NCBI RefSeq assembly: GCF_003790525.1
Contig: NZ_CP033635.1
DNA length: 64,000 bases
Direction: 5' to 3' (one strand)
Source of the DNA: Escherichia coli
GTDB taxonomy: Bacteria; Pseudomonadota; Gammaproteobacteria; Enterobacterales; Enterobacteriaceae
Shown one piece after another: positions 41,784-51,755 of this stretch; the stretch's first letter is position 1; every line of letters begins with the position of its first letter. The notes beneath the pieces are model-generated. The model did no database searches. It saw nothing but the letters and a program-made list of their open reading frames with translations, and had not been told where the DNA came from. Position numbers and translations under genes: made by a program.

Positions 41784-43448
41784 TTAAAACGTTTCCCAGT
41801 TCTCCCCGCTATCTGCCACGGCCATTTTACGCGGCGCAGCTGGCGTCACGGTTTTTACCACAGCCGATGTTTCACGCTGATGTTGCTGCTGTTGCTGAAT
41901 CCGGAACACTGCCACAGCTTCGGTCAGGCGACTGGCCTGCTCTTCCAGCGCGGCGGCGGCAGCGGCAGATTCTTCCACCAGCGCAGCGTTCTGTTGAGTT
42001 ACCCGGTCCATCTCAGCAACCGCTAATCCAACCTGATCGATACCACGGCTCTGCTCATCAGAAGCAGAAGCTATTTCGCCCATAATGTCCGTCACGCGGG
42101 TCACAGCGCTGACAATCTCTGCCATGGTTTCCCCGGCGCTTTCGACCAGCGTAGAGCCAACATCCACTTTGCCCACCGAGTCTTCAATCAGGCTTTTAAT
42201 TTCGCGAGCCGCCTGAGCGCTACGCTGGGCCAGATTACGCACTTCTCCCGCAACCACCGCAAAACCGCGCCCTTGCTCACCCGCGCGCGCTGCTTCAACC
42301 GCCGCGTTCAAAGCGAGAATATTGGTCTGGAAGGCAATGCCGTCAATTACGCTGATAATATCGGCGATTTTCTGCGAACTGGTGGAGATATCGCGCATGG
42401 TCTGCACCACGTTATCCACCACTTTGCCGCCGCGTTGCGCCGTTTCAGAAGCACTTAACGCCAGGTGGCTGGCCTGGCGCGCATTTTCGGCGTTCTGCTT
42501 CACCGTTGCGGTCAGTTGCTCCATGCTGGCTGCCGTCTCTTCCAGCGAAGCGGCCTGTTGCTCGGTGCGCGAAGAGAGATCGTTATTGCCGGTAGCGATT
42601 TCGCTGGCACCGCTATAGATGGCATTGGCCCCGTTGCGCACATCACCGACGGTACGCATCAGCTCTCCCTGCATATGGCGCAAACTCTCAGCCAGTTGCC
42701 CCATCTCATTAGAGCCATCCACCTCAATCGGTTTCACCAGATCGCCGCCTGCAATATGACGAATGCTGTCAATCAGGCGATTCATTGGCGCTACCAACGA
42801 GGCTTTAATACCGAACCAGACGGCGAAGATGACCGCCAGTACGACGATCATCACGCCCACCAGAATCCACATCGCCTGGCTGTAGGAGGCATTATTATCG
42901 CTGACGGCGATATCATAGAGCCGATCGTTTTGCTCCATGTAAGCCACATACTGCTTCTCGAAACCGTCCTGATATCCCTGGGTTGGCTGATCAAAGAACT
43001 CGTTGATTTTGCCTGCACCTAACAGTTGGATCAGCTCCGCCAGCGCATTGTGATAAATATCGTAATTACGTTTGATCTCTGCCGCTGCGGCGGTGCTCTG
43101 ACGCGGGTCACGCGGCAACGCTTCGTAATCCGCCCAGTTTTTTTCCGCCTGTTTCAGCGAAATACTGGCACTCTGCATCAGCTCAGCAACGGTTGAACCG
43201 CTACCAATATTATTCTGATCCATCATGTAGCGGATACCCGCGCGGTTGAGGGTGTTACGCGTCTGCAACAACGCGACCCAGCTGCCATTCAGCGTGGATT
43301 GCTGCTGGCGAATGGTTTGTAAAACAGTGAAATTTTCTTTGTCATTCTTTAAGGCATTAAAGAACAGACCGCCTGATGTCAGTTGTAAAAGGCCAAAAAC
43401 GGCCAAAACCAGCAGTAAGCTGGTCACGATCTTGATACGTTTTAACAT
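41784..43448 (-). CDS. tsr: Methyl-accepting chemotaxis protein I (serine chemoreceptor) Tsr
   Basis: ORF track 41784..43463; conserved start [23 protein letters not shown]; C-terminal NWETF pentapeptide. Confidence 0.92.
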
Positions 43449-43587
43449 GGTTTCTCTTTCCACTAGACAGATACACTGGTTGTCGGCCTGGTGGTGGAAA
43501 ACTTTATGCTGTGGAAAAGCGTCGGCACTGCTTTTGTTGCAGCAAACTTGCGTTTTTTGTGAGGGTCACACTCTATAGCGGCAGTTT

Positions 43588-44493
43588 ATGGTACAAAGTA
43601 TCAATCTTCTTCGAACCAGTGATACTCCTATGGCTTATAGCATCGATATCATCTCCTGCATTACCGAACGGTTTATGGCGTTAACAGCCACTGAAAAGCG
43701 TATCGCACAATTTATTCTTGATGACGTCTCTGCCGCAGTAGAGTTGCCAATTGCTGAGCTGGCACGGTTAACGCAAACCAGTCAGGCGTCGGTGACGCGT
43801 TTTGCCCGTGCACTGGGGTGCAAAGATGTCCGCGAGTTGAAAGTCAAACTGGCGCAGTCACTGGCTGTCGGGCAGCGGTTTATTCTCGATGTACCGGATC
43901 TTGACGGTGTTCAGGGGATCTACGAAGCGATTATTAGCGTGCTGGAGACGCATCGTCGTTCGCTGGATATGAATGCCATCAGCCAGGCTGTAAGCTGGTT
44001 AAGTCAGGCGCGGCAAATTCTTGCGTTAGGAACTGGCGGCGGTTCCACTATCTGTTCACAGGAGATTCAGTACCGTTTATTCCGTCTGGGGCTACCGGTG
44101 GTCAGTCAGAATGATGCCCTGATGATGAGAATGATGTGCTCGGCAGTCATGCCGCAGGATGTGGTGATTGTGCTTTCGCTGGGCGGTTATACACCGGAAA
44201 TCATCGAAAGTGCGGCAATCGCCCGTCAGTATGGCGCGCGTGTTATTGCCATTACGCCAGCACAAACACCGCTGGCGGAACAGGTGGATCTGGTATTGCC
44301 GTTACTGGTTCAGGAAAGTGATTACATCTTTAAGCCCACCCCTTCCCGCTACGCGATGTTAGCCATGGTCGATGTACTGGCAACAGAACTGGCAATGGCA
44401 AATAAAGCGCAGGCGAAAGATCGCCTGCGGCGGATAAAACTCGTGTTAGACAGCCACCGTGGGGGCGCTAACCGCCAGCCACTTGGCGATTAG
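43588..44493 (+). CDS. RpiR/MurR-family transcriptional regulator (N-terminal HTH, C-terminal SIS domain); start may be the internal Met at 43630
   Basis: HTH segment ELPIAELARLTQTSQASVTRFARALG and SIS-like ILALGTGGGS; divergent from tsr. Confidence 0.8.
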   Translation: MVQSINLLRTSDTPMAYSIDIISCITERFMALTATEKRIAQFILDDVSAAVELPIAELARLTQTSQASVTRFARALGCKDVRELKVKLAQSLAVGQRFILDVPDLDGVQGIYEAIISVLETHRRSLDMNAISQAVSWLSQARQILALGTGGGSTICSQEIQYRLFRLGLPVVSQNDALMMRMMCSAVMPQDVVIVLSLGGYTPEIIESAAIARQYGARVIAITPAQTPLAEQVDLVLPLLVQESDYIFKPTPSRYAMLAMVDVLATELAMANKAQAKDRLRRIKLVLDSHRGGANRQPLGD

Positions 44494-44502
44494 CATTGTC
44501 GG

Positions 44503-45972
44503 TTATGCTTCTTCAGGTTTGGTGATCACGACACTCTGGTTTTCACGCTCATTGGTGATAATAGCCAAAGCTTCTTCCCGGCTGACCTGACTTGCTGGCG
44601 TTACCAACGTCACCAGTACGCCAGCGACCAGGCTGCCCAGCACTGACGGAATACACGGGTTACCCCAGTAAGCCAGCCAGTCGGCATTCATCAGCACCAC
44701 AATTGACATCACCATACCACTCACTAACGCCGCCAGCGCGCCCTGCCAGTTAAAGCGTAGCCAGAAGCGACCGAGAATCGAGCAGATAAACAACCCGGAC
44801 ATCAGCATCGAAATCATTTTGGTAATGTAGCTGATGATGTCGTTAGAGGTCAGAGCAAAGACCAGCGCCAGGCCAATAACAAAGGTCAACATCCAGCGTG
44901 AGTAAGTGATTGCCTTATCCTCCGGCGGCATTCTGCCGGTAATCATGGTGTAGACGTCGCGCATCATAATCGCCACCGCCGCGATGGCATCGGAGCTGGC
45001 AGAAGACATGGTGGCTGAAAGCCCGGCAATCAGCACCACCAGCCCAAGAATGGCAGGTAAGAAACTGGTCGCGAACAAGAAGGCGTAGTTGCTGTTTTCC
45101 AGATTTGGGTTCATGGTGAACGCCGCCATGCCGATAATGGCAGGCAAAATCGAGAAGAACAGATATAACACCCCAGTAATAACAAACGAACGGCGTACAG
45201 AGGGAACATCTTTACCCGAGTAAATACGCTGGCGATAAGACGGTGTTGCCAGCACACCTACGCCAATAACCAGTGCCAGCGAAAGCGCAGGCAGCACGCC
45301 CATTTTATCAATCGCAAACAGGCTCATCGCTTTTGGGTCCATCGCCTGCTCAATCGCACTCCAGCCGCCAACGTGAACAACGGCAAGAATAGCCATTAAT
45401 ATAAAGCCAAAGAACAGAATTAGGGCCTGAATAGTATCTGTCCACACTACCGCCGAATAACCGCCGATAATAACGTAAATCGCAAAAGCTAAGGCAATAA
45501 TTAATTTTGCCACCGTAAGATCAATACCTGTTGCCCAGGCAAGATACATACTTCCACCTAATATATGCGCCCCCAGCCAGCCAATAGAGGCAATAAATAT
45601 CATCAGGCCGACAATATTTTTAATTAAATGGCTGCCGCCAGTATAATAAGATATTTCTTCACTCATGGTCATAAATCGTAATTTACGTACCGGTGCAAAC
45701 AGCCACGCCACCAGTAATATACCTACGGCCCCACCGACGCCATAAAGCATTCCGGCCCAGCCATTGCTGTAGCCAAAGCCCACTGCGCCCATACTGGAAC
45801 CCGTGCCAACCATCGTGGCAACGGTTGACCCCAGCGTCAGAAACAGCGGCAGCGAACGCCCGCCCAGCAGAAAATCTTCTCCGCTTTTCTGATTACGAGA
45901 AACAAACCAACCAAGCCAAATCATGGCGATGGCATAAATAATAAAGCCGACTAAAAAGATATGACTGTTCAT
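44503..45972 (-). CDS. Sodium:solute symporter family (SSF) transporter
   Basis: 489-aa polytopic membrane protein with SSF N-terminal signature FLLGGRSLPLFLTLGSTVATMVGTGSSMGAVGFGY. Confidence 0.8.
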   Translation of the reverse strand: MNSHIFLVGFIIYAIAMIWLGWFVSRNQKSGEDFLLGGRSLPLFLTLGSTVATMVGTGSSMGAVGFGYSNGWAGMLYGVGGAVGILLVAWLFAPVRKLRFMTMSEEISYYTGGSHLIKNIVGLMIFIASIGWLGAHILGGSMYLAWATGIDLTVAKLIIALAFAIYVIIGGYSAVVWTDTIQALILFFGFILMAILAVVHVGGWSAIEQAMDPKAMSLFAIDKMGVLPALSLALVIGVGVLATPSYRQRIYSGKDVPSVRRSFVITGVLYLFFSILPAIIGMAAFTMNPNLENSNYAFLFATSFLPAILGLVVLIAGLSATMSSASSDAIAAVAIMMRDVYTMITGRMPPEDKAITYSRWMLTFVIGLALVFALTSNDIISYITKMISMLMSGLFICSILGRFWLRFNWQGALAALVSGMVMSIVVLMNADWLAYWGNPCIPSVLGSLVAGVLVTLVTPASQVSREEALAIITNERENQSVVITKPEEA

Positions 45973-46074
45973 AATTCACATCCTGCCAGTAGAGAGAAAT
46001 TAATGTAAGAGTTCCCGGAGTGCTGAATGTATTCAGCACTCAATTGCGGTCTGTTTTTTTAATTCTTAAATTTA

Positions 46075-46470
46075 TTAGCGGGTCGCGTTATAACAGGTCA
46101 CATCGACTTCGACTTTACAATCGACAACCAGATCAGCCACACAACAAATACGTGCAGGTGGATTCTCGCCAAAAAATTCTCTGAATACTTTATTAAATGA
46201 CTGGAAATAGCGGGCGTCGGTCAGGATCACTTTCACGTGAACCACATCCACCAGGCTATAACCGGCTTCAGTCATGATGTCGACACAGTTTTGAATCGCC
46301 AGTCGTGACTGTTCAACGATTCCGCCTTCTACCACTTCACCGTTTTTCATGGGTGTTTGCCCGGAGACGTACAGCCAGCCGCCCGCCTCAACCGCCCTGG
46401 CAAAAGGCAAATGCTGCCCGCCAGTGCCTGTTCCACCTTCCGTACCGTAACGTTTAATGCTCATATTCAC
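46075..46470 (-). CDS. RidA/YjgF-family reactive-intermediate (enamine/imine) deaminase
   Basis: 131-aa ORF with family motifs LYVSGQTP, ARY..FN.V...FF and conserved Arg in ENPPARICCV. Confidence 0.8.
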   Translation of the reverse strand: MNMSIKRYGTEGGTGTGGQHLPFARAVEAGGWLYVSGQTPMKNGEVVEGGIVEQSRLAIQNCVDIMTEAGYSLVDVVHVKVILTDARYFQSFNKVFREFFGENPPARICCVADLVVDCKVEVDVTCYNATR

Positions 46471-46473
46471 TCC

Positions 46474-47925
46474 TTAATGTGAGGTCTGCCGGCGCAGGAA
46501 GCGTCCCGCACGGCCTGTAATATGTTTATCGGGACCATAGCTCATAACGCCGTTCACCATCACCGCCTCAATGCCATCTGCCGGGCGTTTGGGATCAGAA
46601 AAGCTGGCAACATCACGAATGGTTTGTGGATCGAACAACACCAGGTCCGCAAAATAGCCAACTTTCACCAGCCCACGCTGGGGCAGGCGAAAACGGCTGG
46701 CAGAAAGCCCGGTCATTTTGTGGATAGCCGTGGTCAGTGGGAATAAGCCTTCATCACGGCAATAGTGGCCCAGCACGCGAGGGAAGGCGCCCCATAAACG
46801 TGGATGCGGCATGGGATCATTGGGCAGGCCGTCAGAGCCAATCATACTGACCGGATAACTCAACACTCGGCGGACGTCGCGCTCGTCCATGTTGTAATAG
46901 ATAGCCCCGGCAGGCATTAGCAGCTTCGCGGCCTCCAGCATACTCATCTGCCAGTCGATGGCGATTTGCGCCAGTGTTTTCCCGGCCTGCTGCGGATGTG
47001 TTTGTGACCAGGTGATCACAATATCGAATTCGTCGGTGACTTGTTTGAGATCCAGCGTTGAAGAGCTGGCTGAGTAAGGGTAGACATCGCAGCCAATTTC
47101 CTGGTGTTGACGCATTTGGTCAAAAAAGGCCAACGTTTCTTTTGTCCGCCCCCAGTTTTTCGCCCCGGCGCATTTATGGTGGGAAACCACGACAGGCACT
47201 TTGCCATGACGCCCAATACGAAACGCCTCATCCAGGGCATCGAGAATCGGTTCAAATTCAGAACGCAGATGGGTGGTATAAACGCCCTTCTCACCGGCTA
47301 ATTCTTCCGCCAGCGCCATGACTTCTTCGGTAGTCGCCTGAAATGCCGTTGCATAGGCCAGCCCGGAACTTAACCCCAGCGCCCCCTGACTCAACGCCAG
47401 ACGTAAGTCGGCACGCATAGCGGCAATTTCATCCACCGTCGCCGGGCGAAACAGGTCGTCCATATGGTTATTACGCAGCGCCGTATGACCAATCAGCGTG
47501 CCAACGTTCAGTGACGGCCTGGCTGCTTCCACTGCCTGGGCATAGCTTTCAACGGTAGGATAAATAAAGTGCTCTGCTTCCCCCAACAGATTCATCGGGT
47601 CAGGAACTTCACCTTTCATTTTCGCCGACGCCGCACTAATCCCGCAGTTACCGACAATCACCGTAGTGATCCCCTGGCTGATCTTTGGCAGATATTCCGG
47701 GATGCGAATAACGTTGATATCGTCATGGGTATGAACGTCGATAAACCCTGGTGCCAGCACCCGCCCTTCCCCGTCAATGACCTGCTGCGCCGTAACGTTA
47801 AGCGCAGGGGCAATATCGACAATCCGATCACCTGTTATTGCCACGTCACCGCGAAATTCAGGGCCGCCGCTACCGTCGATAACGGTCACATTTTTGATTA
47901 ACCAGTCAACCTGCATGTTCGTCAC
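46474..47925 (-). CDS. N-acyl-D-amino-acid deacylase (D-aminoacylase), amidohydrolase superfamily
   Basis: 483-aa ORF with N-terminal IKNVTVIDGSG...GFIDVHTHDD metal-binding motif typical of D-aminoacylases. Confidence 0.8.
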   Translation of the reverse strand: MTNMQVDWLIKNVTVIDGSGGPEFRGDVAITGDRIVDIAPALNVTAQQVIDGEGRVLAPGFIDVHTHDDINVIRIPEYLPKISQGITTVIVGNCGISAASAKMKGEVPDPMNLLGEAEHFIYPTVESYAQAVEAARPSLNVGTLIGHTALRNNHMDDLFRPATVDEIAAMRADLRLALSQGALGLSSGLAYATAFQATTEEVMALAEELAGEKGVYTTHLRSEFEPILDALDEAFRIGRHGKVPVVVSHHKCAGAKNWGRTKETLAFFDQMRQHQEIGCDVYPYSASSSTLDLKQVTDEFDIVITWSQTHPQQAGKTLAQIAIDWQMSMLEAAKLLMPAGAIYYNMDERDVRRVLSYPVSMIGSDGLPNDPMPHPRLWGAFPRVLGHYCRDEGLFPLTTAIHKMTGLSASRFRLPQRGLVKVGYFADLVLFDPQTIRDVASFSDPKRPADGIEAVMVNGVMSYGPDKHITGRAGRFLRRQTSH

Positions 47926-48116
47926 TCCATTTCTGCAATGGTGACAAGTTAACCATTTACAAGGACGAAAAACAGTGGAAAACTACGCAAAACCCAGATG
48001 ATTTTATGATACTTTTATTCATAAATAATAAGATAAATAAACTAAATATTTATATTTCATTTAGTTACAAATGATACTCACATCCGATACGGTGAAAAAC
48101 TTAAAAGGTAAATGTT

Positions 48117-49337
48117 ATGAAATACCACTCAGAACCTCTGGTTCCCCATAAATCTGCCCTGATGCAAATGCCCGCAAATCTCCTTGCCGAAGATGTCTGT
48201 TTACCTGCCGCGATCATTAAAAAGCAGGCCCTGGAGAACAACATTACGTGGATGCAACGCTACGCTGACGCGCGCGGCGTTTCACTGGCACCGCACGGTA
48301 AAACCACCATGACGCCGTGGATTTTTCAGGCGCAGCAGGCGGCTGGTGCCTGGGCAATAGGTGTCGGTAGCGCATGGCAGGCTGGTGCGGCAATGGCGAG
48401 CGGTATTCAGCGAGTGCTGATGGTTAACCAGCTGGTCGGCAAGGCGAATATGCAGTTGATTGCCCAGTTGCAACGACATTACCCGACGGTCGATTTTATC
48501 AGCTGTATCGACAGCATTGAGAACGCCCGCGCTTTGTCTGCCTTTTTTGCCAGTCAGCAACAGACACTGAACGTGATGATTGAGTTGGGTGTCCCCGGCG
48601 GGCGCTGTGGTTGCCGCTCAAGGGATGCCGCACTGACACTGGCTAAACAGGCAGCCCAATTACCGGGGTTACGCCTGCGGGGGCTTGAGTTATATGAAGG
48701 CGTTTTACACGGTGACGATCCACAACCGCAGGTAGAAGCTCTGCTGCGGGATGCCGCACAACTGGCCTGTGATATGGCAAGTCTGGTTGATGGCGAGTTT
48801 ATTCTCACCGGAGCAGGCACGGTCTGGTATGACGTGGTGTGCAATATCTGGCTGGCGGCAGAAAAGCCTGATAACTGCCGCATTGTTATTCGCCCTGGCT
48901 GCTACATCACTCACGACACCGGGATCTACGACGCGGCACAACAACAGTTGCTTGCCCGTGATCCTGTGGCTTGCGATCTGGCAGGCGATCTCACATCTGC
49001 ACTGGAACTGGTCGCCATGGTGCAATCGGTGCCGGAAGCTGATCGTGCGGTGGTTAATTTTGGTAAGCGTGATTGCGCCTTCGACGCCGGACTGCCGCAA
49101 CCAGTCGCCCACTATCGCAACGGCAAATCACTGGCATTTGATCCACAGGCGATTCGCAGTACAGGCATTATGGATCAGCACTGCATGTTGCAGTTGGGTG
49201 CCGACAGCGACGTGCAAGTGGGGGATATTCTGGTGTTTGGCACATCGCATCCGTGCCTGACCTTCGACAAATGGAAAACGTTGTTATTGACTGATGACGA
49301 CTACAACGTACTGGCAGAATTAGACACTCTCTTCTAA
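48117..49337 (+). CDS. DSD1-family PLP enzyme (alanine racemase N-terminal fold; D-serine dehydratase / D-threonine aldolase-like)
   Basis: 406-aa ORF with probable PLP-lysine motif LAPHGKTT; RBS AAGG upstream of ATG; divergent from the aminoacylase gene. Confidence 0.72.
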   Translation: MKYHSEPLVPHKSALMQMPANLLAEDVCLPAAIIKKQALENNITWMQRYADARGVSLAPHGKTTMTPWIFQAQQAAGAWAIGVGSAWQAGAAMASGIQRVLMVNQLVGKANMQLIAQLQRHYPTVDFISCIDSIENARALSAFFASQQQTLNVMIELGVPGGRCGCRSRDAALTLAKQAAQLPGLRLRGLELYEGVLHGDDPQPQVEALLRDAAQLACDMASLVDGEFILTGAGTVWYDVVCNIWLAAEKPDNCRIVIRPGCYITHDTGIYDAAQQQLLARDPVACDLAGDLTSALELVAMVQSVPEADRAVVNFGKRDCAFDAGLPQPVAHYRNGKSLAFDPQAIRSTGIMDQHCMLQLGADSDVQVGDILVFGTSHPCLTFDKWKTLLLTDDDYNVLAELDTLF

Positions 49338-49341
49338 GAAC

Positions 49342-49377
49342 GCCCCTTCGGTTAATTATCGAAGGGGCATTTTTATT
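49342..49377 (+). terminator. Rho-independent terminator after the DSD1-family gene
   Basis: GCCCCTTCG-loop-CGAAGGGGC hairpin followed by ATTTTTATT. Confidence 0.6.
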
Positions 49378-49395
49378 GTGATCTCAATCACATAT
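49374..49395. promoter_or_regulatory. CRP binding site in btsT promoter
   Basis: TATTGTGATCTCAATCACATAT with perfect TGTGA-N6-TCACA core. Confidence 0.6.
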
Positions 49396-49420
49396 CCACC
49401 CGACGAATAATTCTTGCCCA

Positions 49421-49448
49421 ACCGCTCACCGCCATTCCTGACCGCTTA
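49421..49448. promoter_or_regulatory. BtsR (YehT, LytTR-family) direct-repeat binding motif in btsT promoter
   Basis: Direct repeat ACCGCTCA ... ACCGCTTA with 12-bp spacer upstream of btsT. Confidence 0.55.
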
Positions 49449-49604
49449 CATCCCTAAAATAACCACTCAGTTATTTACCTTACTTTACGCGCGCGTAACT
49501 CTGGCAACATCACTGCAGGATAGCGGTCAATTTACCTCCTCAAACGCAACGCAAACCTAGAACGGCTTCGGCCAACTATTAATCAATACATGCCAGGTTT
49601 TACT

Positions 49605-51755
49605 ATGGATACTAAAAAGATATTCAAGCACATACCCTGGGTGATTCTCGGAATCATCGGTGCATTCTGCCTCGCGGTAGTTGCATTACGTCGGGGGGAG
49701 CACGTCAGTGCCCTGTGGATCGTGGTCGCCTCTGTGTCGGTGTATCTGGTGGCTTATCGCTACTACAGTCTGTACATCGCCCAGAAGGTGATGAAACTCG
49801 ACCCCACGCGCGCGACGCCTGCGGTTATTAACAACGACGGTCTGAACTATGTTCCGACCAACCGTTACGTGTTGTTTGGTCACCACTTCGCCGCTATCGC
49901 CGGTGCTGGTCCGCTGGTTGGTCCGGTTCTCGCCGCGCAGATGGGCTACCTGCCTGGCACGCTGTGGCTGCTGGCGGGGGTAGTGCTGGCCGGTGCGGTA
50001 CAGGACTTTATGGTGCTGTTTATCTCCTCTCGCCGTAACGGCGCATCTCTCGGTGAGATGATCAAAGAAGAGATGGGACCAGTACCGGGGACTATCGCGC
50101 TGTTTGGCTGTTTCTTAATCATGATCATCATCCTTGCCGTCCTGGCGCTGATTGTGGTTAAAGCCCTGGCCGAAAGTCCGTGGGGTGTCTTCACCGTTTG
50201 CTCAACCGTACCGATTGCGCTGTTTATGGGTATCTACATGCGCTTTATTCGTCCGGGGCGTGTGGGTGAAGTCTCTGTCATTGGTATCGTGCTGCTGGTT
50301 GCCTCTATCTACTTCGGTGGCGTGATTGCTCACGATCCGTACTGGGGTCCGGCACTGACCTTTAAAGACACCACCATTACCTTCGCGCTGATTGGCTATG
50401 CGTTTGTTTCCGCACTGCTGCCAGTGTGGCTGATCCTCGCACCGCGCGACTATCTGGCAACCTTCCTGAAAATCGGCGTTATCGTCGGCCTGGCGCTGGG
50501 TATCGTGGTGCTGAACCCGGAACTGAAAATGCCTGCGATGACCCAGTACATTGACGGTACTGGCCCGCTGTGGAAAGGCGCTCTGTTCCCGTTCCTGTTC
50601 ATCACCATCGCCTGTGGTGCGGTATCTGGCTTCCACGCGCTGATCTCTTCCGGTACGACGCCGAAACTGCTGGCTAACGAAACCGACGCGCGTTTCATTG
50701 GCTACGGCGCAATGCTGATGGAGTCCTTCGTGGCGATTATGGCGCTGGTTGCTGCGTCCATCATCGAACCGGGTCTTTACTTCGCGATGAACACCCCGCC
50801 TGCTGGCCTTGGCATCACCATGCCTAACCTGCATGAAATGGGTGGCGAGAACGCGCCGATCATCATGGCGCAGCTGAAAGACGTTACCGCACACGCGGCA
50901 GCGACCGTCAGCTCCTGGGGCTTCGTGATTTCGCCAGAGCAGATCCTGCAAACAGCGAAAGATATTGGTGAGCCTTCTGTCCTGAACCGTGCAGGTGGTG
51001 CGCCGACGCTGGCGGTAGGTATCGCTCACGTGTTCCACAAAGTGCTGCCGATGGCTGACATGGGCTTCTGGTATCACTTCGGTATTCTGTTCGAAGCCCT
51101 GTTCATCCTGACCGCGCTGGATGCGGGTACCCGTTCTGGCCGCTTTATGCTGCAAGACCTGCTGGGTAACTTCATCCCGTTCCTGAAAAAAACCGACTCT
51201 CTGGTTGCCGGTATCATCGGTACTGCGGGCTGTGTGGGTCTGTGGGGGTACCTGCTGTATCAGGGCGTGGTCGATCCGCTGGGCGGCGTTAAGAGCCTGT
51301 GGCCGCTGTTCGGTATCTCCAACCAGATGCTGGCAGCCGTAGCGCTGGTACTGGGCACCGTTGTGCTGATTAAGATGAAGCGCACCCAATACATCTGGGT
51401 AACTGTTGTTCCGGCTGTATGGCTGCTTATCTGCACCACCTGGGCGCTGGGCCTGAAACTGTTCAGCACCAACCCGCAGATGGAAGGCTTCTTCTACATG
51501 GCAAGCCAGTACAAAGAGAAGATTGCTAACGGTACTGACCTGACGGCACAGCAGATTGCCAACATGAACCACATCGTTGTGAACAACTACACCAACGCGG
51601 GCCTGAGTATTCTGTTCCTGATTGTGGTGTACAGCATCATCTTCTACGGTTTCAAAACCTGGCTGAAGGTGCGTAACAGCGACAAACGTACTGACAAAGA
51701 AACTCCGTACGTTCCAATCCCGGAAGGCGGCGTGAAGATCTCTTCGCACCACTAA
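49605..51755 (+). CDS. btsT: Pyruvate/H+ symporter BtsT (YjiY), CstA family
   Basis: ORF track 49590..51755; conserved start MDTKKIFKHIPWVILGIIGAFCLAVVAL. Confidence 0.95.
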   Translation: MDTKKIFKHIPWVILGIIGAFCLAVVALRRGEHVSALWIVVASVSVYLVAYRYYSLYIAQKVMKLDPTRATPAVINNDGLNYVPTNRYVLFGHHFAAIAGAGPLVGPVLAAQMGYLPGTLWLLAGVVLAGAVQDFMVLFISSRRNGASLGEMIKEEMGPVPGTIALFGCFLIMIIILAVLALIVVKALAESPWGVFTVCSTVPIALFMGIYMRFIRPGRVGEVSVIGIVLLVASIYFGGVIAHDPYWGPALTFKDTTITFALIGYAFVSALLPVWLILAPRDYLATFLKIGVIVGLALGIVVLNPELKMPAMTQYIDGTGPLWKGALFPFLFITIACGAVSGFHALISSGTTPKLLANETDARFIGYGAMLMESFVAIMALVAASIIEPGLYFAMNTPPAGLGITMPNLHEMGGENAPIIMAQLKDVTAHAAATVSSWGFVISPEQILQTAKDIGEPSVLNRAGGAPTLAVGIAHVFHKVLPMADMGFWYHFGILFEALFILTALDAGTRSGRFMLQDLLGNFIPFLKKTDSLVAGIIGTAGCVGLWGYLLYQGVVDPLGGVKSLWPLFGISNQMLAAVALVLGTVVLIKMKRTQYIWVTVVPAVWLLICTTWALGLKLFSTNPQMEGFFYMASQYKEKIANGTDLTAQQIANMNHIVVNNYTNAGLSILFLIVVYSIIFYGFKTWLKVRNSDKRTDKETPYVPIPEGGVKISSHH

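Follow-up and report, generated by a model that had tools for sequence, protein, structure and literature searches.

The btsT control region of Escherichia coli SMS-3-5 adjoins a variable gene slot between tsr and btsT

Introduction

The chromosomes of the Enterobacteriaceae contain gene-flux hotspots between conserved core genes. The region between tsr and btsT (yjiY) of Escherichia coli raises the question of how the border of such a site relates to the promoter of the core gene beside it. In K-12 MG1655 the two genes are divergently transcribed, with 377 bp between them, and btsT requires both CRP and BtsS/BtsR (PMC5431176; PMC10653868; PMC7730263). The window analysed here, a stretch of 64,000 nucleotides of contig NZ_CP033635.1 (assembly GCF_003790525.1), is 100% identical to E. 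coli SMS-3-5 (NC_010498.1) and contains a five-gene accessory module between tsr and btsT. The btsT promoter, its CRP dependence and the BtsR repeat are already established in K-12; the locus leads us to ask (i) where the boundary between module and promoter lies, (ii) by what kind of event it came about, and (iii) whether the module affects btsT.

The Locus and the Accessory Module

Gene calls were taken from the SMS-3-5 RefSeq annotation (Table 1), in which btsT is followed by yjiX and yjiA. The interval 49338-49604 is the control region of btsT, that is, the known promoter of the pyruvate-transporter gene. The gene upstream of it had been labelled DSD1-family in a preliminary description of the window, a label that fits its Ala_racemase_N and D-ser_dehydrat domains. 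At the opposite edge of the module, TAAAGTTT-N11-GCCGA on the tsr strand is taken, on the basis of the sigma-28 consensus, to be the promoter of tsr. An RpoF SELEX peak falls in the yjiY-tsr spacer of K-12 (PMC5493296).

The module has a G+C content of 0.47-0.55, similar to that of its flanks. No recombinase or transposase is annotated among its five genes (RefSeq, Pfam), and a search for direct repeats or a target duplication found no repeat of at least 8 nt common to the two module junction neighbourhoods. The properties by which a mobile genomic island is recognised, including (i) a recombinase gene, (ii) direct repeats or an att site, and (iii) an atypical composition, are absent from the module. 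Transposition and site-specific integration of the module were considered and ruled out, in the absence of target duplications, end repeats and annotated mobility genes.

Table 1. Features of the tsr-btsT region in window coordinates
Feature	Position	Strand	Basis or remark
tsr	41784-43448	-	RefSeq annotation
tsr start codon, leader and presumed sigma-28 promoter	43446-43508	-	six-locus-type alignment
Five-gene accessory module	43509-49341	.	RefSeq annotation and Pfam domains
MurR/RpiR regulator	43630-44493	+	module gene; RefSeq, Pfam
Na+:solute symporter	44503-45972	-	module gene; RefSeq, Pfam
RidA	46075-46464	-	module gene; RefSeq, Pfam
N-acyl-D-amino-acid deacylase-family amidohydrolase	46474-47916	-	module gene; RefSeq, Pfam
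DSD1-like amino acid deaminase	48117-49337	+	Ala_racemase_N and C-terminal D-ser_dehydrat domains, Pfam
Deaminase tail, last six codons and stop	49318-49337	+	mosaic; codon comparison with E272-type allele
Intrinsic-terminator-like hairpin and T tract	49342-49377	+	stem 49342-49368
CRP-binding-site core TGTGATCTCAATCACA	49377-49392	.	conserved part of the btsT control region begins here
28-nt spacer, CRP to box 1	49393-49420	.	length fixed, sequence free
Box 1 ACCGCTCA, putative distal BtsR-type repeat	49421-49428	+	perfect ACCRCTYA
Box 2 ACCGCTTA, BtsR/YehT repeat	49441-49448	+	ACCRCTYA match
Box 3 ACCACTCA, proximal BtsR/YehT repeat	49462-49469	+	13 bp after box 2
Candidate extended -10 TGGCAACAT	49502-49510	+	family TGnCAnnAT; predicted from conservation only
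btsT leader to start codon	49511-49604	+	roughly 90-100 nt
btsT (yjiY), pyruvate/H+ symporter gene	49605-51755	+	RefSeq annotation

The CRP Site and the BtsR-Type Repeats

The control region opens with a near-consensus CRP site in which the half-sites TGTGA and TCACA are 6 bp apart. The core TGTGATCTCAATCACA is the sole TGTGA-N6-TCACA match on both strands of the 64-kb window, for 0.05 expected from shuffles, so that the perfect CRP core reported initially is confirmed. It begins 40 nt past the deaminase stop codon, and its first T is also the last base of the terminator interval; the terminator had been said to overlap the CRP site, and the two features do abut, sharing one nucleotide (49377). 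Deletion of crp in K-12 abolishes btsT promoter activity, a result that applies to K-12 only and does not specify the site used (PMC7730263), and CRP dependence together with CsrA control has been stated for btsT (PMC5431176; PMC10653868).

Downstream of the CRP site lie three boxes; the window contains 14 ACCRCTYA matches in all, these three included, for 6.4 expected. Their starts are phased 20 and 21 bp apart, with spacers of 12 bp between boxes 1 and 2 and 13 bp between boxes 2 and 3, and box 1 starts 44 bp after the start of the CRP site. The YehT/BtsR site is reported to have been defined by Kraxenberger et al. in 2012 as a direct repeat ACC[G/A]CT[C/T]A with a 13-bp spacer. This motif is matched by ACCGCTTA/ACCACTCA, which differ by G/A at position 4 and T/C at position 7. 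Boxes 1 and 2, with their 12-bp spacer, do not show the G/A difference at position 4, and box 1 is nevertheless conserved. The BtsR direct repeat had been proposed to consist of ACCGCTCA and ACCGCTTA; both sequences are present, but the published repeat fits boxes 2 and 3, and the third box, ACCACTCA, had been left out. Box 1 is treated here as a putative BtsR repeat beside the published two-box site. The K-12 oligonucleotide 'yjiY YehT bs' used for SPR covers all three boxes (core CCTTTGCCGCTCAACCGCAAAACTGACCGCTTACATCCCTAAAATAACCACTCAGTTA; PMC4847170); from 49438 on it agrees with the window in every position down to its last base, and it differs in the box-1 part, which belongs to the K-12 allele and reads GCCGCTCA at box 1.

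Divergence from the K-12 Promoter

Three btsT promoter alleles of E. coli display the same geometry without indels, with the CRP site starting 228 nt before the ATG and the boxes following at +44, +20, and +21 nt. An ungapped comparison of SMS-3-5 with K-12, anchored on the btsT start codon, gives identities of (i) 1/12 just upstream of the CRP site, (ii) 14/16 in the CRP core, (iii) 8/28 in the spacer from CRP to box 1, (iv) 7/8 in box 1, (v) 6/12 between boxes 1 and 2, (vi) 163/164 from box 2 to the ATG, and (vii) 589/600 in the first 600 nt of btsT. Among the three alleles the 28-nt spacer shows random-level identity (8-11/28) at the same length throughout, and the alleles hardly differ over 49441-49604, the segment between the start of box 2 and the ATG. 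Unbroken K-12 identity sets in only at 49438, in the interval that separates boxes 1 and 2, which puts the junction with K-12 within the control region. To judge from the alignment, the CRP site, the 28-nt spacer, and box 1 are a replaced and deeply diverged allele in which the motifs and their spacing are retained.

These comparisons modify the account given at the outset, in which an insertion or deletion had occurred between tsr and the btsT control region without disturbing the latter. An intact btsT control region does directly abut the module, but K-12 identity resumes only at 49438; a clean event upstream of an undisturbed promoter is contradicted by the CRP-to-box-1 segment, a different allele whose spacer matches K-12 at only 8 of 28 positions. 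In the alignment, module and hairpin are both missing from K-12, as had been supposed. Of the two observations named beforehand as refuting, a K-12 region that already contains the hairpin and a junction located elsewhere, the second was made, at 49438, and the first was not.

Exact copies of the 16-mer TGTGATCTCAATCACA are also found in Citrobacter, Klebsiella, Raoultella, Pseudocitrobacter, Lelliottia, and others, and this recurrence across genera marks the allele of SMS-3-5, also present in the hpa-type genomes described below, as the family-typical form. By the same comparison the distal allele of K-12 appears as the unusual one, approximately common to E. albertii.

Conservation across the Enterobacteriaceae

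A scan for BtsT with one genome per species recovered 80 loci with 90-100% protein identity; the set searched for motifs (n = 80) comprised 77 species-level loci and the three E. coli alleles. At 80/80 loci a CRP-like site with no more than two half-site mismatches precedes three ACCRCTYA-like boxes, in a search that was optimised over small spacing ranges and therefore slightly favours box detection. The distance from CRP to box 1 is 44 bp in 71/80 loci, box 1 is followed by box 2 at 20 bp in 75/80, and box 2 by box 3 at 20 or 21 bp in 79/80, whereas a perfect ACCRCTYA occurs in 56/80 loci for box 1, 71/80 for box 2, and 57/80 for box 3. Since the same arrangement stands upstream of btsT at all 80 loci, the CRP-plus-three-box layout is not a product of chance, and the CRP site is conserved at a fixed position in these orthologous promoters.

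A conservation profile was calculated from the 66 loci that align without gaps. The fraction of the majority base amounts to 0.37 over the 30 nt that precede the CRP site, 0.94 in the CRP half-sites, 0.50 in the spacer between CRP and box 1, 0.89 in box 1, 0.56 in the spacer between boxes 1 and 2, and 0.96 in box 2; conservation across genera thus falls to background directly upstream of the CRP site. The species being related, the profile is to be read as a footprint and carries no probability.

The genes adjoining btsT vary from species to species. A divergent tsr is the neighbour at 32 loci and hpaBC at 16, an ORF of the O157 type adjoins btsT in three Citrobacter, the RidA-deacylase-deaminase group does so at one locus (L070), and a TRAP-transporter cassette in a cryptic-clade Escherichia. 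This variety bears on the idea that the CRP site serves the module or another upstream neighbour, for instance in catabolite control of the deaminase or of a divergent gene, and not btsT. The site does lie at the module edge, close behind the deaminase stop codon, and in one E. coli genome type (E272, below) the start of an oxidoreductase gene in divergent orientation lies upstream of it; the idea is nonetheless barely credible, given that the 44 bp to the BtsR boxes are kept in 71 of the 80 loci whatever the upstream gene (tsr, hpaC, deaminase, TRAP transporter, others), that the site is present in K-12, where the module is missing, and that K-12 btsT promoter activity is crp-dependent (PMC7730263).

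The Terminator Hairpin

The hairpin terminator reported at the end of the deaminase gene is present. Its stem comprises 11 pairs, seven of them G-C, closed by a 5-nt loop and followed by ATTTTTATTG; it begins 5 nt past the deaminase TAA, with the tail ATTTTTATT. The RNA minimum free energy (MFE) of 49335-49380 is -23.1 kcal/mol (z = -6.5; 0/200 shuffles as stable). A G+C-rich stem-loop and a T/U tract after a stop codon make this a predicted Rho-independent terminator, which presumably insulates the btsT promoter from transcription of the upstream gene.

Comparable folding energies are found at other loci. Over the 50 nt that lead up to the CRP site, the median MFE is about -20 kcal/mol at the 16 loci with a co-directional hpaC, the values are -23.3 and -17.4 kcal/mol at two deaminase loci, and the median is -9 kcal/mol at the 32 loci with a divergent tsr, while the hairpin sequences upstream of the CRP site differ between genera. 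A strong hairpin is therefore the rule behind a co-directional neighbour and not peculiar to SMS-3-5. A terminator of -23 kcal/mol, and a co-directional gene order found in thousands of genomes and in other genera, argue that read-through onto btsT is nothing special to SMS-3-5.

The hairpin had also been regarded as a feature of the island itself, which does not hold: both arms (49342-49349 and 49359-49368) and the T tract also end hpaC in 2,066 hpa-type E. coli genomes, where the order 3' of hpaC is GCCCCTTC-ACGCATTCG-TCGAAGGGGC-ATTTTTAT-TGTGATCTCAATCACA. The hpa type and the window agree in both arms, the T tract, and all that follows, and differ in the 9-nt centre and in all upstream sequence, the two centres being unrelated and of equal length. 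The right flank of the hpa type is present in 2,261 of 5,426 complete E. coli genomes. Inversion of the loop was considered as the cause of the difference between the two centres and rejected, since by eye they are not reverse complements.

Mosaic structure extends into the deaminase gene. Between the SMS and E272 types, the 1,202 nt that precede the tail are 97.6% identical, and the match to the E272-type deaminase stops at query position 1202, which is window position 49318; the tail, which consists of the last six sense codons plus the stop, shows a synonymous difference in every codon. In Escherichia sp. MOD1-EC7003, the region upstream of the MurR/RpiR gene is retained together with the first ~50 nt of that gene, fused to the last ~110 nt of hpaC; the hpa-type hairpin comes next, here behind a different cassette. 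A composite arrangement of deaminase plus hpa was found in none of the E. coli genomes.

Such mosaics could suggest that the hairpin is itself a recombination or integration target, att-like or REP-like, that steers cassettes to this place, as the unrelated hpaC and deaminase genes share arms and tail around unrelated centres of equal length and MOD1-EC7003 keeps the hairpin behind another cassette. We regard this as very unlikely, because the hairpin is single-copy (median of one place per E. coli genome), no recombinase or transposase is annotated in the module, no target duplication is found, the E272 type has the same right boundary without any hairpin, and other genera carry unrelated hairpins at the same position.

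The tsr-btsT Gap as a Variable Slot

Junction-specific searches over 5,426 complete E. coli genomes distinguish five states of the gap, including (i) an empty slot with the K-12-type intergenic region (2,752 genomes), (ii) a slot in which hpaC adjoins btsT (2,066 genomes), (iii) a slot with one 180-aa ORF, the O157:H7 type, which carries the third promoter allele (363 genomes), (iv) a slot in which the deaminase adjoins btsT, as in the window (159 genomes), and (v) a slot with the D-amino-acid module and a hydroxyproline-catabolism cluster, the E272 type (35 genomes). Together these states cover 5,375 of the 5,426 genomes. The 194 genomes with the deaminase are exactly the 159 and 35 of the last two states.

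The edges of the slot are sharp. E272-type genomes lack the hairpin and are homologous to the window from GTGATCTC (49378) on, which makes the left edge of the CRP site the right boundary common to the cargos. On the other side, a six-locus-type alignment shows that all states share tsr, its leader, and the sigma-28 promoter and diverge right after AAACTTTATG at 43508. Unrelated cargos thus occupy the same site between shared flanks, both within and between species; the tsr-btsT gap is an ordinary variable slot, and differing cassettes between conserved genes are commonplace in E. coli.

The slot, 43508-49377, would be of long standing, its cargo having changed through recombination within the conserved flanks or close to them, and the replacements that survived selection would be those that left both flanking promoters intact. 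With both promoters under selection, the visible boundaries are expected at their outer edges, and the module abuts them exactly. Most probably, then, the interval is an ordinary btsT control region abutting a slot whose cargo has been exchanged by flank recombination and whose edges are set by the two promoters. Flank recombination alone does not explain the hairpin mosaic or the recoded deaminase tail.

The competing account, one clean insertion (or else a loss in K-12) with a hairpin owned by the island and read-through that modulates btsT, draws on the absence of module and hairpin from K-12, on a cassette boundary at the CRP site in all genomes with the SMS allele, and on the T tract of the hairpin touching the CRP core. 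It is unlikely in view of several observations: K-12 identity is found only from 49438, the CRP-to-box-1 allele differs (spacer 8/28), the arms and T tract of the hairpin are common to the hpaC terminator of 2,066 genomes, the allele has been replaced in addition to the change of cassette, and the locus has five or more states, not two. The read-through component also faces a terminator predicted to be strong, at -23.1 kcal/mol.

Core Promoter and Leader

Across the aligned loci, conservation between box 3 and the ATG is highest at TGnCAnnAT, a candidate extended -10 element that would place the transcription start near 49517. The centre of the CRP site would then lie beyond -120, unusually far for simple CRP activation. 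A sigma-70 consensus scan returned no promoter on the + strand, as is expected of an activator-dependent promoter. Two other candidates were discarded, (i) TTTACC-N16/17-TAACTC(T), the -10 part of which, unlike TGnCAnnAT, lacks conservation between genera, and (ii) the sigma-54-like TGGCAACATCACTGCA (49502-49517), of which the -12 half is missing outside Escherichia, BtsR not being an enhancer-binding protein.

The btsT leader probably carries a CsrA-controlled translation start. An Rfam scan of 49200-49750 gave sub-threshold chance matches only, with no known RNA element in the leader. In about 2,000 genomes of the hpa type, the btsT leader contains an ERIC-like repeat of 127 bp that is absent from the window; this insertion may affect CsrA control.

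In the proposed mechanism, which draws on the K-12 literature, pyruvate-activated BtsS/BtsR on the repeats and cAMP-CRP upstream would switch on btsT, with BtsR probably bound to phased repeats just ahead of a core promoter that is weak and depends on activators.

Comparison with Known Systems

LytTR-type operators, such as those of AgrA, VirR, PlnC/D, and YpdB, are imperfect direct repeats of ~9-10 bp with spacers of 11-13 bp. YpdB is among the LytTR regulators for which such repeats are described (PMC4847170). The btsT boxes resemble them as one-strand direct repeats about two helical turns (20-21 bp) apart, just upstream of a weak core promoter, and differ in that btsT conserves three phased repeats instead of the canonical pair, occupancy of the distal box being putative.

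The closest relative is the K-12 yjiY/btsT promoter, which precedes the orthologous gene at the same position, with identical boxes 2 and 3 and their 13-bp spacer, the same 228 nt from CRP start to ATG, and 163/164 identical positions from box 2 to the start codon. The two promoters differ in the centre of the CRP site (CTCA in the window, ATGA in K-12), in box 1 (ACCGCTCA versus GCCGCTCA), and in the upstream neighbour, a divergent tsr in K-12 and a co-directional deaminase with its terminator in the window.

The hpa (4-hydroxyphenylacetate) cluster is present in E. coli B and absent from K-12 (PMC3446290). The hpa locus of B/W/C-type E. coli occupies the same slot with the same left edge at the tsr promoter, and its right flank matches the window from 49359 on, including the hairpin arm, the T tract, the CRP site, and the SMS-type distal allele; unlike the window, with its five-gene module of D-amino-acid type, it holds 11 hpa genes, a different hairpin centre, and the ERIC-like repeat in the btsT leader.

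Compared to other hotspots of the Enterobacteriaceae, the tsr-btsT gap likewise accommodates many alternative cassettes, with no mobility genes, a native G+C content, and cargos that cross genera. It differs in that both edges can be located with base-pair precision, each at the outer limit of one of two divergent promoters.

Implications

Overall, the locus offers little beyond housekeeping, a known promoter beside a well-delimited ordinary slot. A tentative and rather doubtful further proposal is that the BtsR operator is tripartite, with box 1 and the CRP site acting at the fixed 44 bp, that the distal alleles linked to the slot differ in function, and that K-12, in which the system was first defined and whose box 1 is degenerate, has the atypical allele; if this were true, the expression of btsT in response to pyruvate would vary among natural strains in its strength or its threshold. 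The tsr-btsT gap provides a base-pair-resolved example of flanking promoters that limit a variable slot. The CRP-plus-three-box layout is fixed across the Enterobacteriaceae, and the SMS/hpa allele exemplifies it better than the K-12 allele does, which matters for the design of btsT reporters or pyruvate biosensors.

Recombination at the 3' end of the deaminase gene

In the window, the final six codons of the deaminase gene and its stop read GAA TTA GAC ACT CTC TTC TAA. The E272-type allele has a different, synonymous codon at each of these positions (GAG CTG GAT ACG CTG TTT TGA), and over the 1,202 nt before this tail the two alleles are 97.6% identical. The change marks a sharp recombination breakpoint.

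Coordinates of the features discussed; L-handles denote individual btsT loci from other genomes
Feature	Locus	Position
Deaminase tail (last six codons and stop)	Window	49318-49337
tsr leader (start codon to sigma-28 promoter)	Window	43462-43497
Sigma-54-like match, TGGCAACATCACTGCA	Window	49502-49517
Equivalent position of the ERIC/IRU-like repeat	Window	between 49586 and 49587
ERIC/IRU-like repeat, hpa type	L003	3238-3364
Hydroxyproline-catabolism-like cluster, E272 type	L006	4712-15118
Hydroxyproline-catabolism-like cluster, E272 type	L004	6497-12419
180-aa ORF, O157:H7 type	L007	9233-9775
Mosaic region, Escherichia sp. MOD1-EC7003	L009	3440-3760

Leader regions of tsr and btsT

The tsr leader occurs as two alleles, one in the SMS and E272 types and the other in the K-12, hpa and O157 types, with the Salmonella leader intermediate in sequence between them. 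Upstream of btsT, TGGCAACATCACTGCA fits the sigma-54 -24/-12 pattern, with GG and GC elements at the correct spacing; the match is probably due to chance, because conservation of its -12 half does not extend beyond Escherichia, and the conserved portion looks like an extended -10 element.

The btsT leader of hpa-type E. coli is interrupted, shortly before the ribosome-binding region, by an ERIC/IRU-like dispersed repeat of 127 bp, of which there is a median of 8 copies per genome; the window lacks this repeat. The location of the CRP site at ~-350 in Escherichia sp. E1V33 (L010), E. albertii (L011) and Citrobacter portucalensis (L022) suggests the same leader insertion in these loci.

Cargo of the tsr-btsT slot

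The E272-type genomes (35 E. coli) contain, between the D-amino-acid module and btsT, a hydroxyproline-catabolism-like cluster encoding a 4-hydroxyproline epimerase, FAD oxidoreductases, a 2Fe-2S protein, a DHDPS-family protein, an aldehyde dehydrogenase, an APC permease, an Ldh-family oxidoreductase and an AraC regulator. The slot of O157:H7-type genomes (n = 363) holds a single unannotated 180-aa ORF, and three Citrobacter species have homologues of ~80% identity at this site. The locus L070 combines a BtsT 93% identical to that of E. coli with an enterobacterial RidA-deacylase-deaminase module in an assembly titled 'Chryseobacterium sp. 18061', a record that is probably contaminated or mislabelled.

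In Escherichia sp. MOD1-EC7003 (L009), btsT is adjoined by a TRAP-transporter cassette. The stretch separating this cassette from the CRP site contains remnants in which the start of the MurR/RpiR gene, the left end of the D-amino-acid module, is joined to the hpaC 3' end. No composite of the D-amino-acid module and hpa is seen among 5,426 E. coli genomes; the fused remnants imply that such an arrangement existed in the past.
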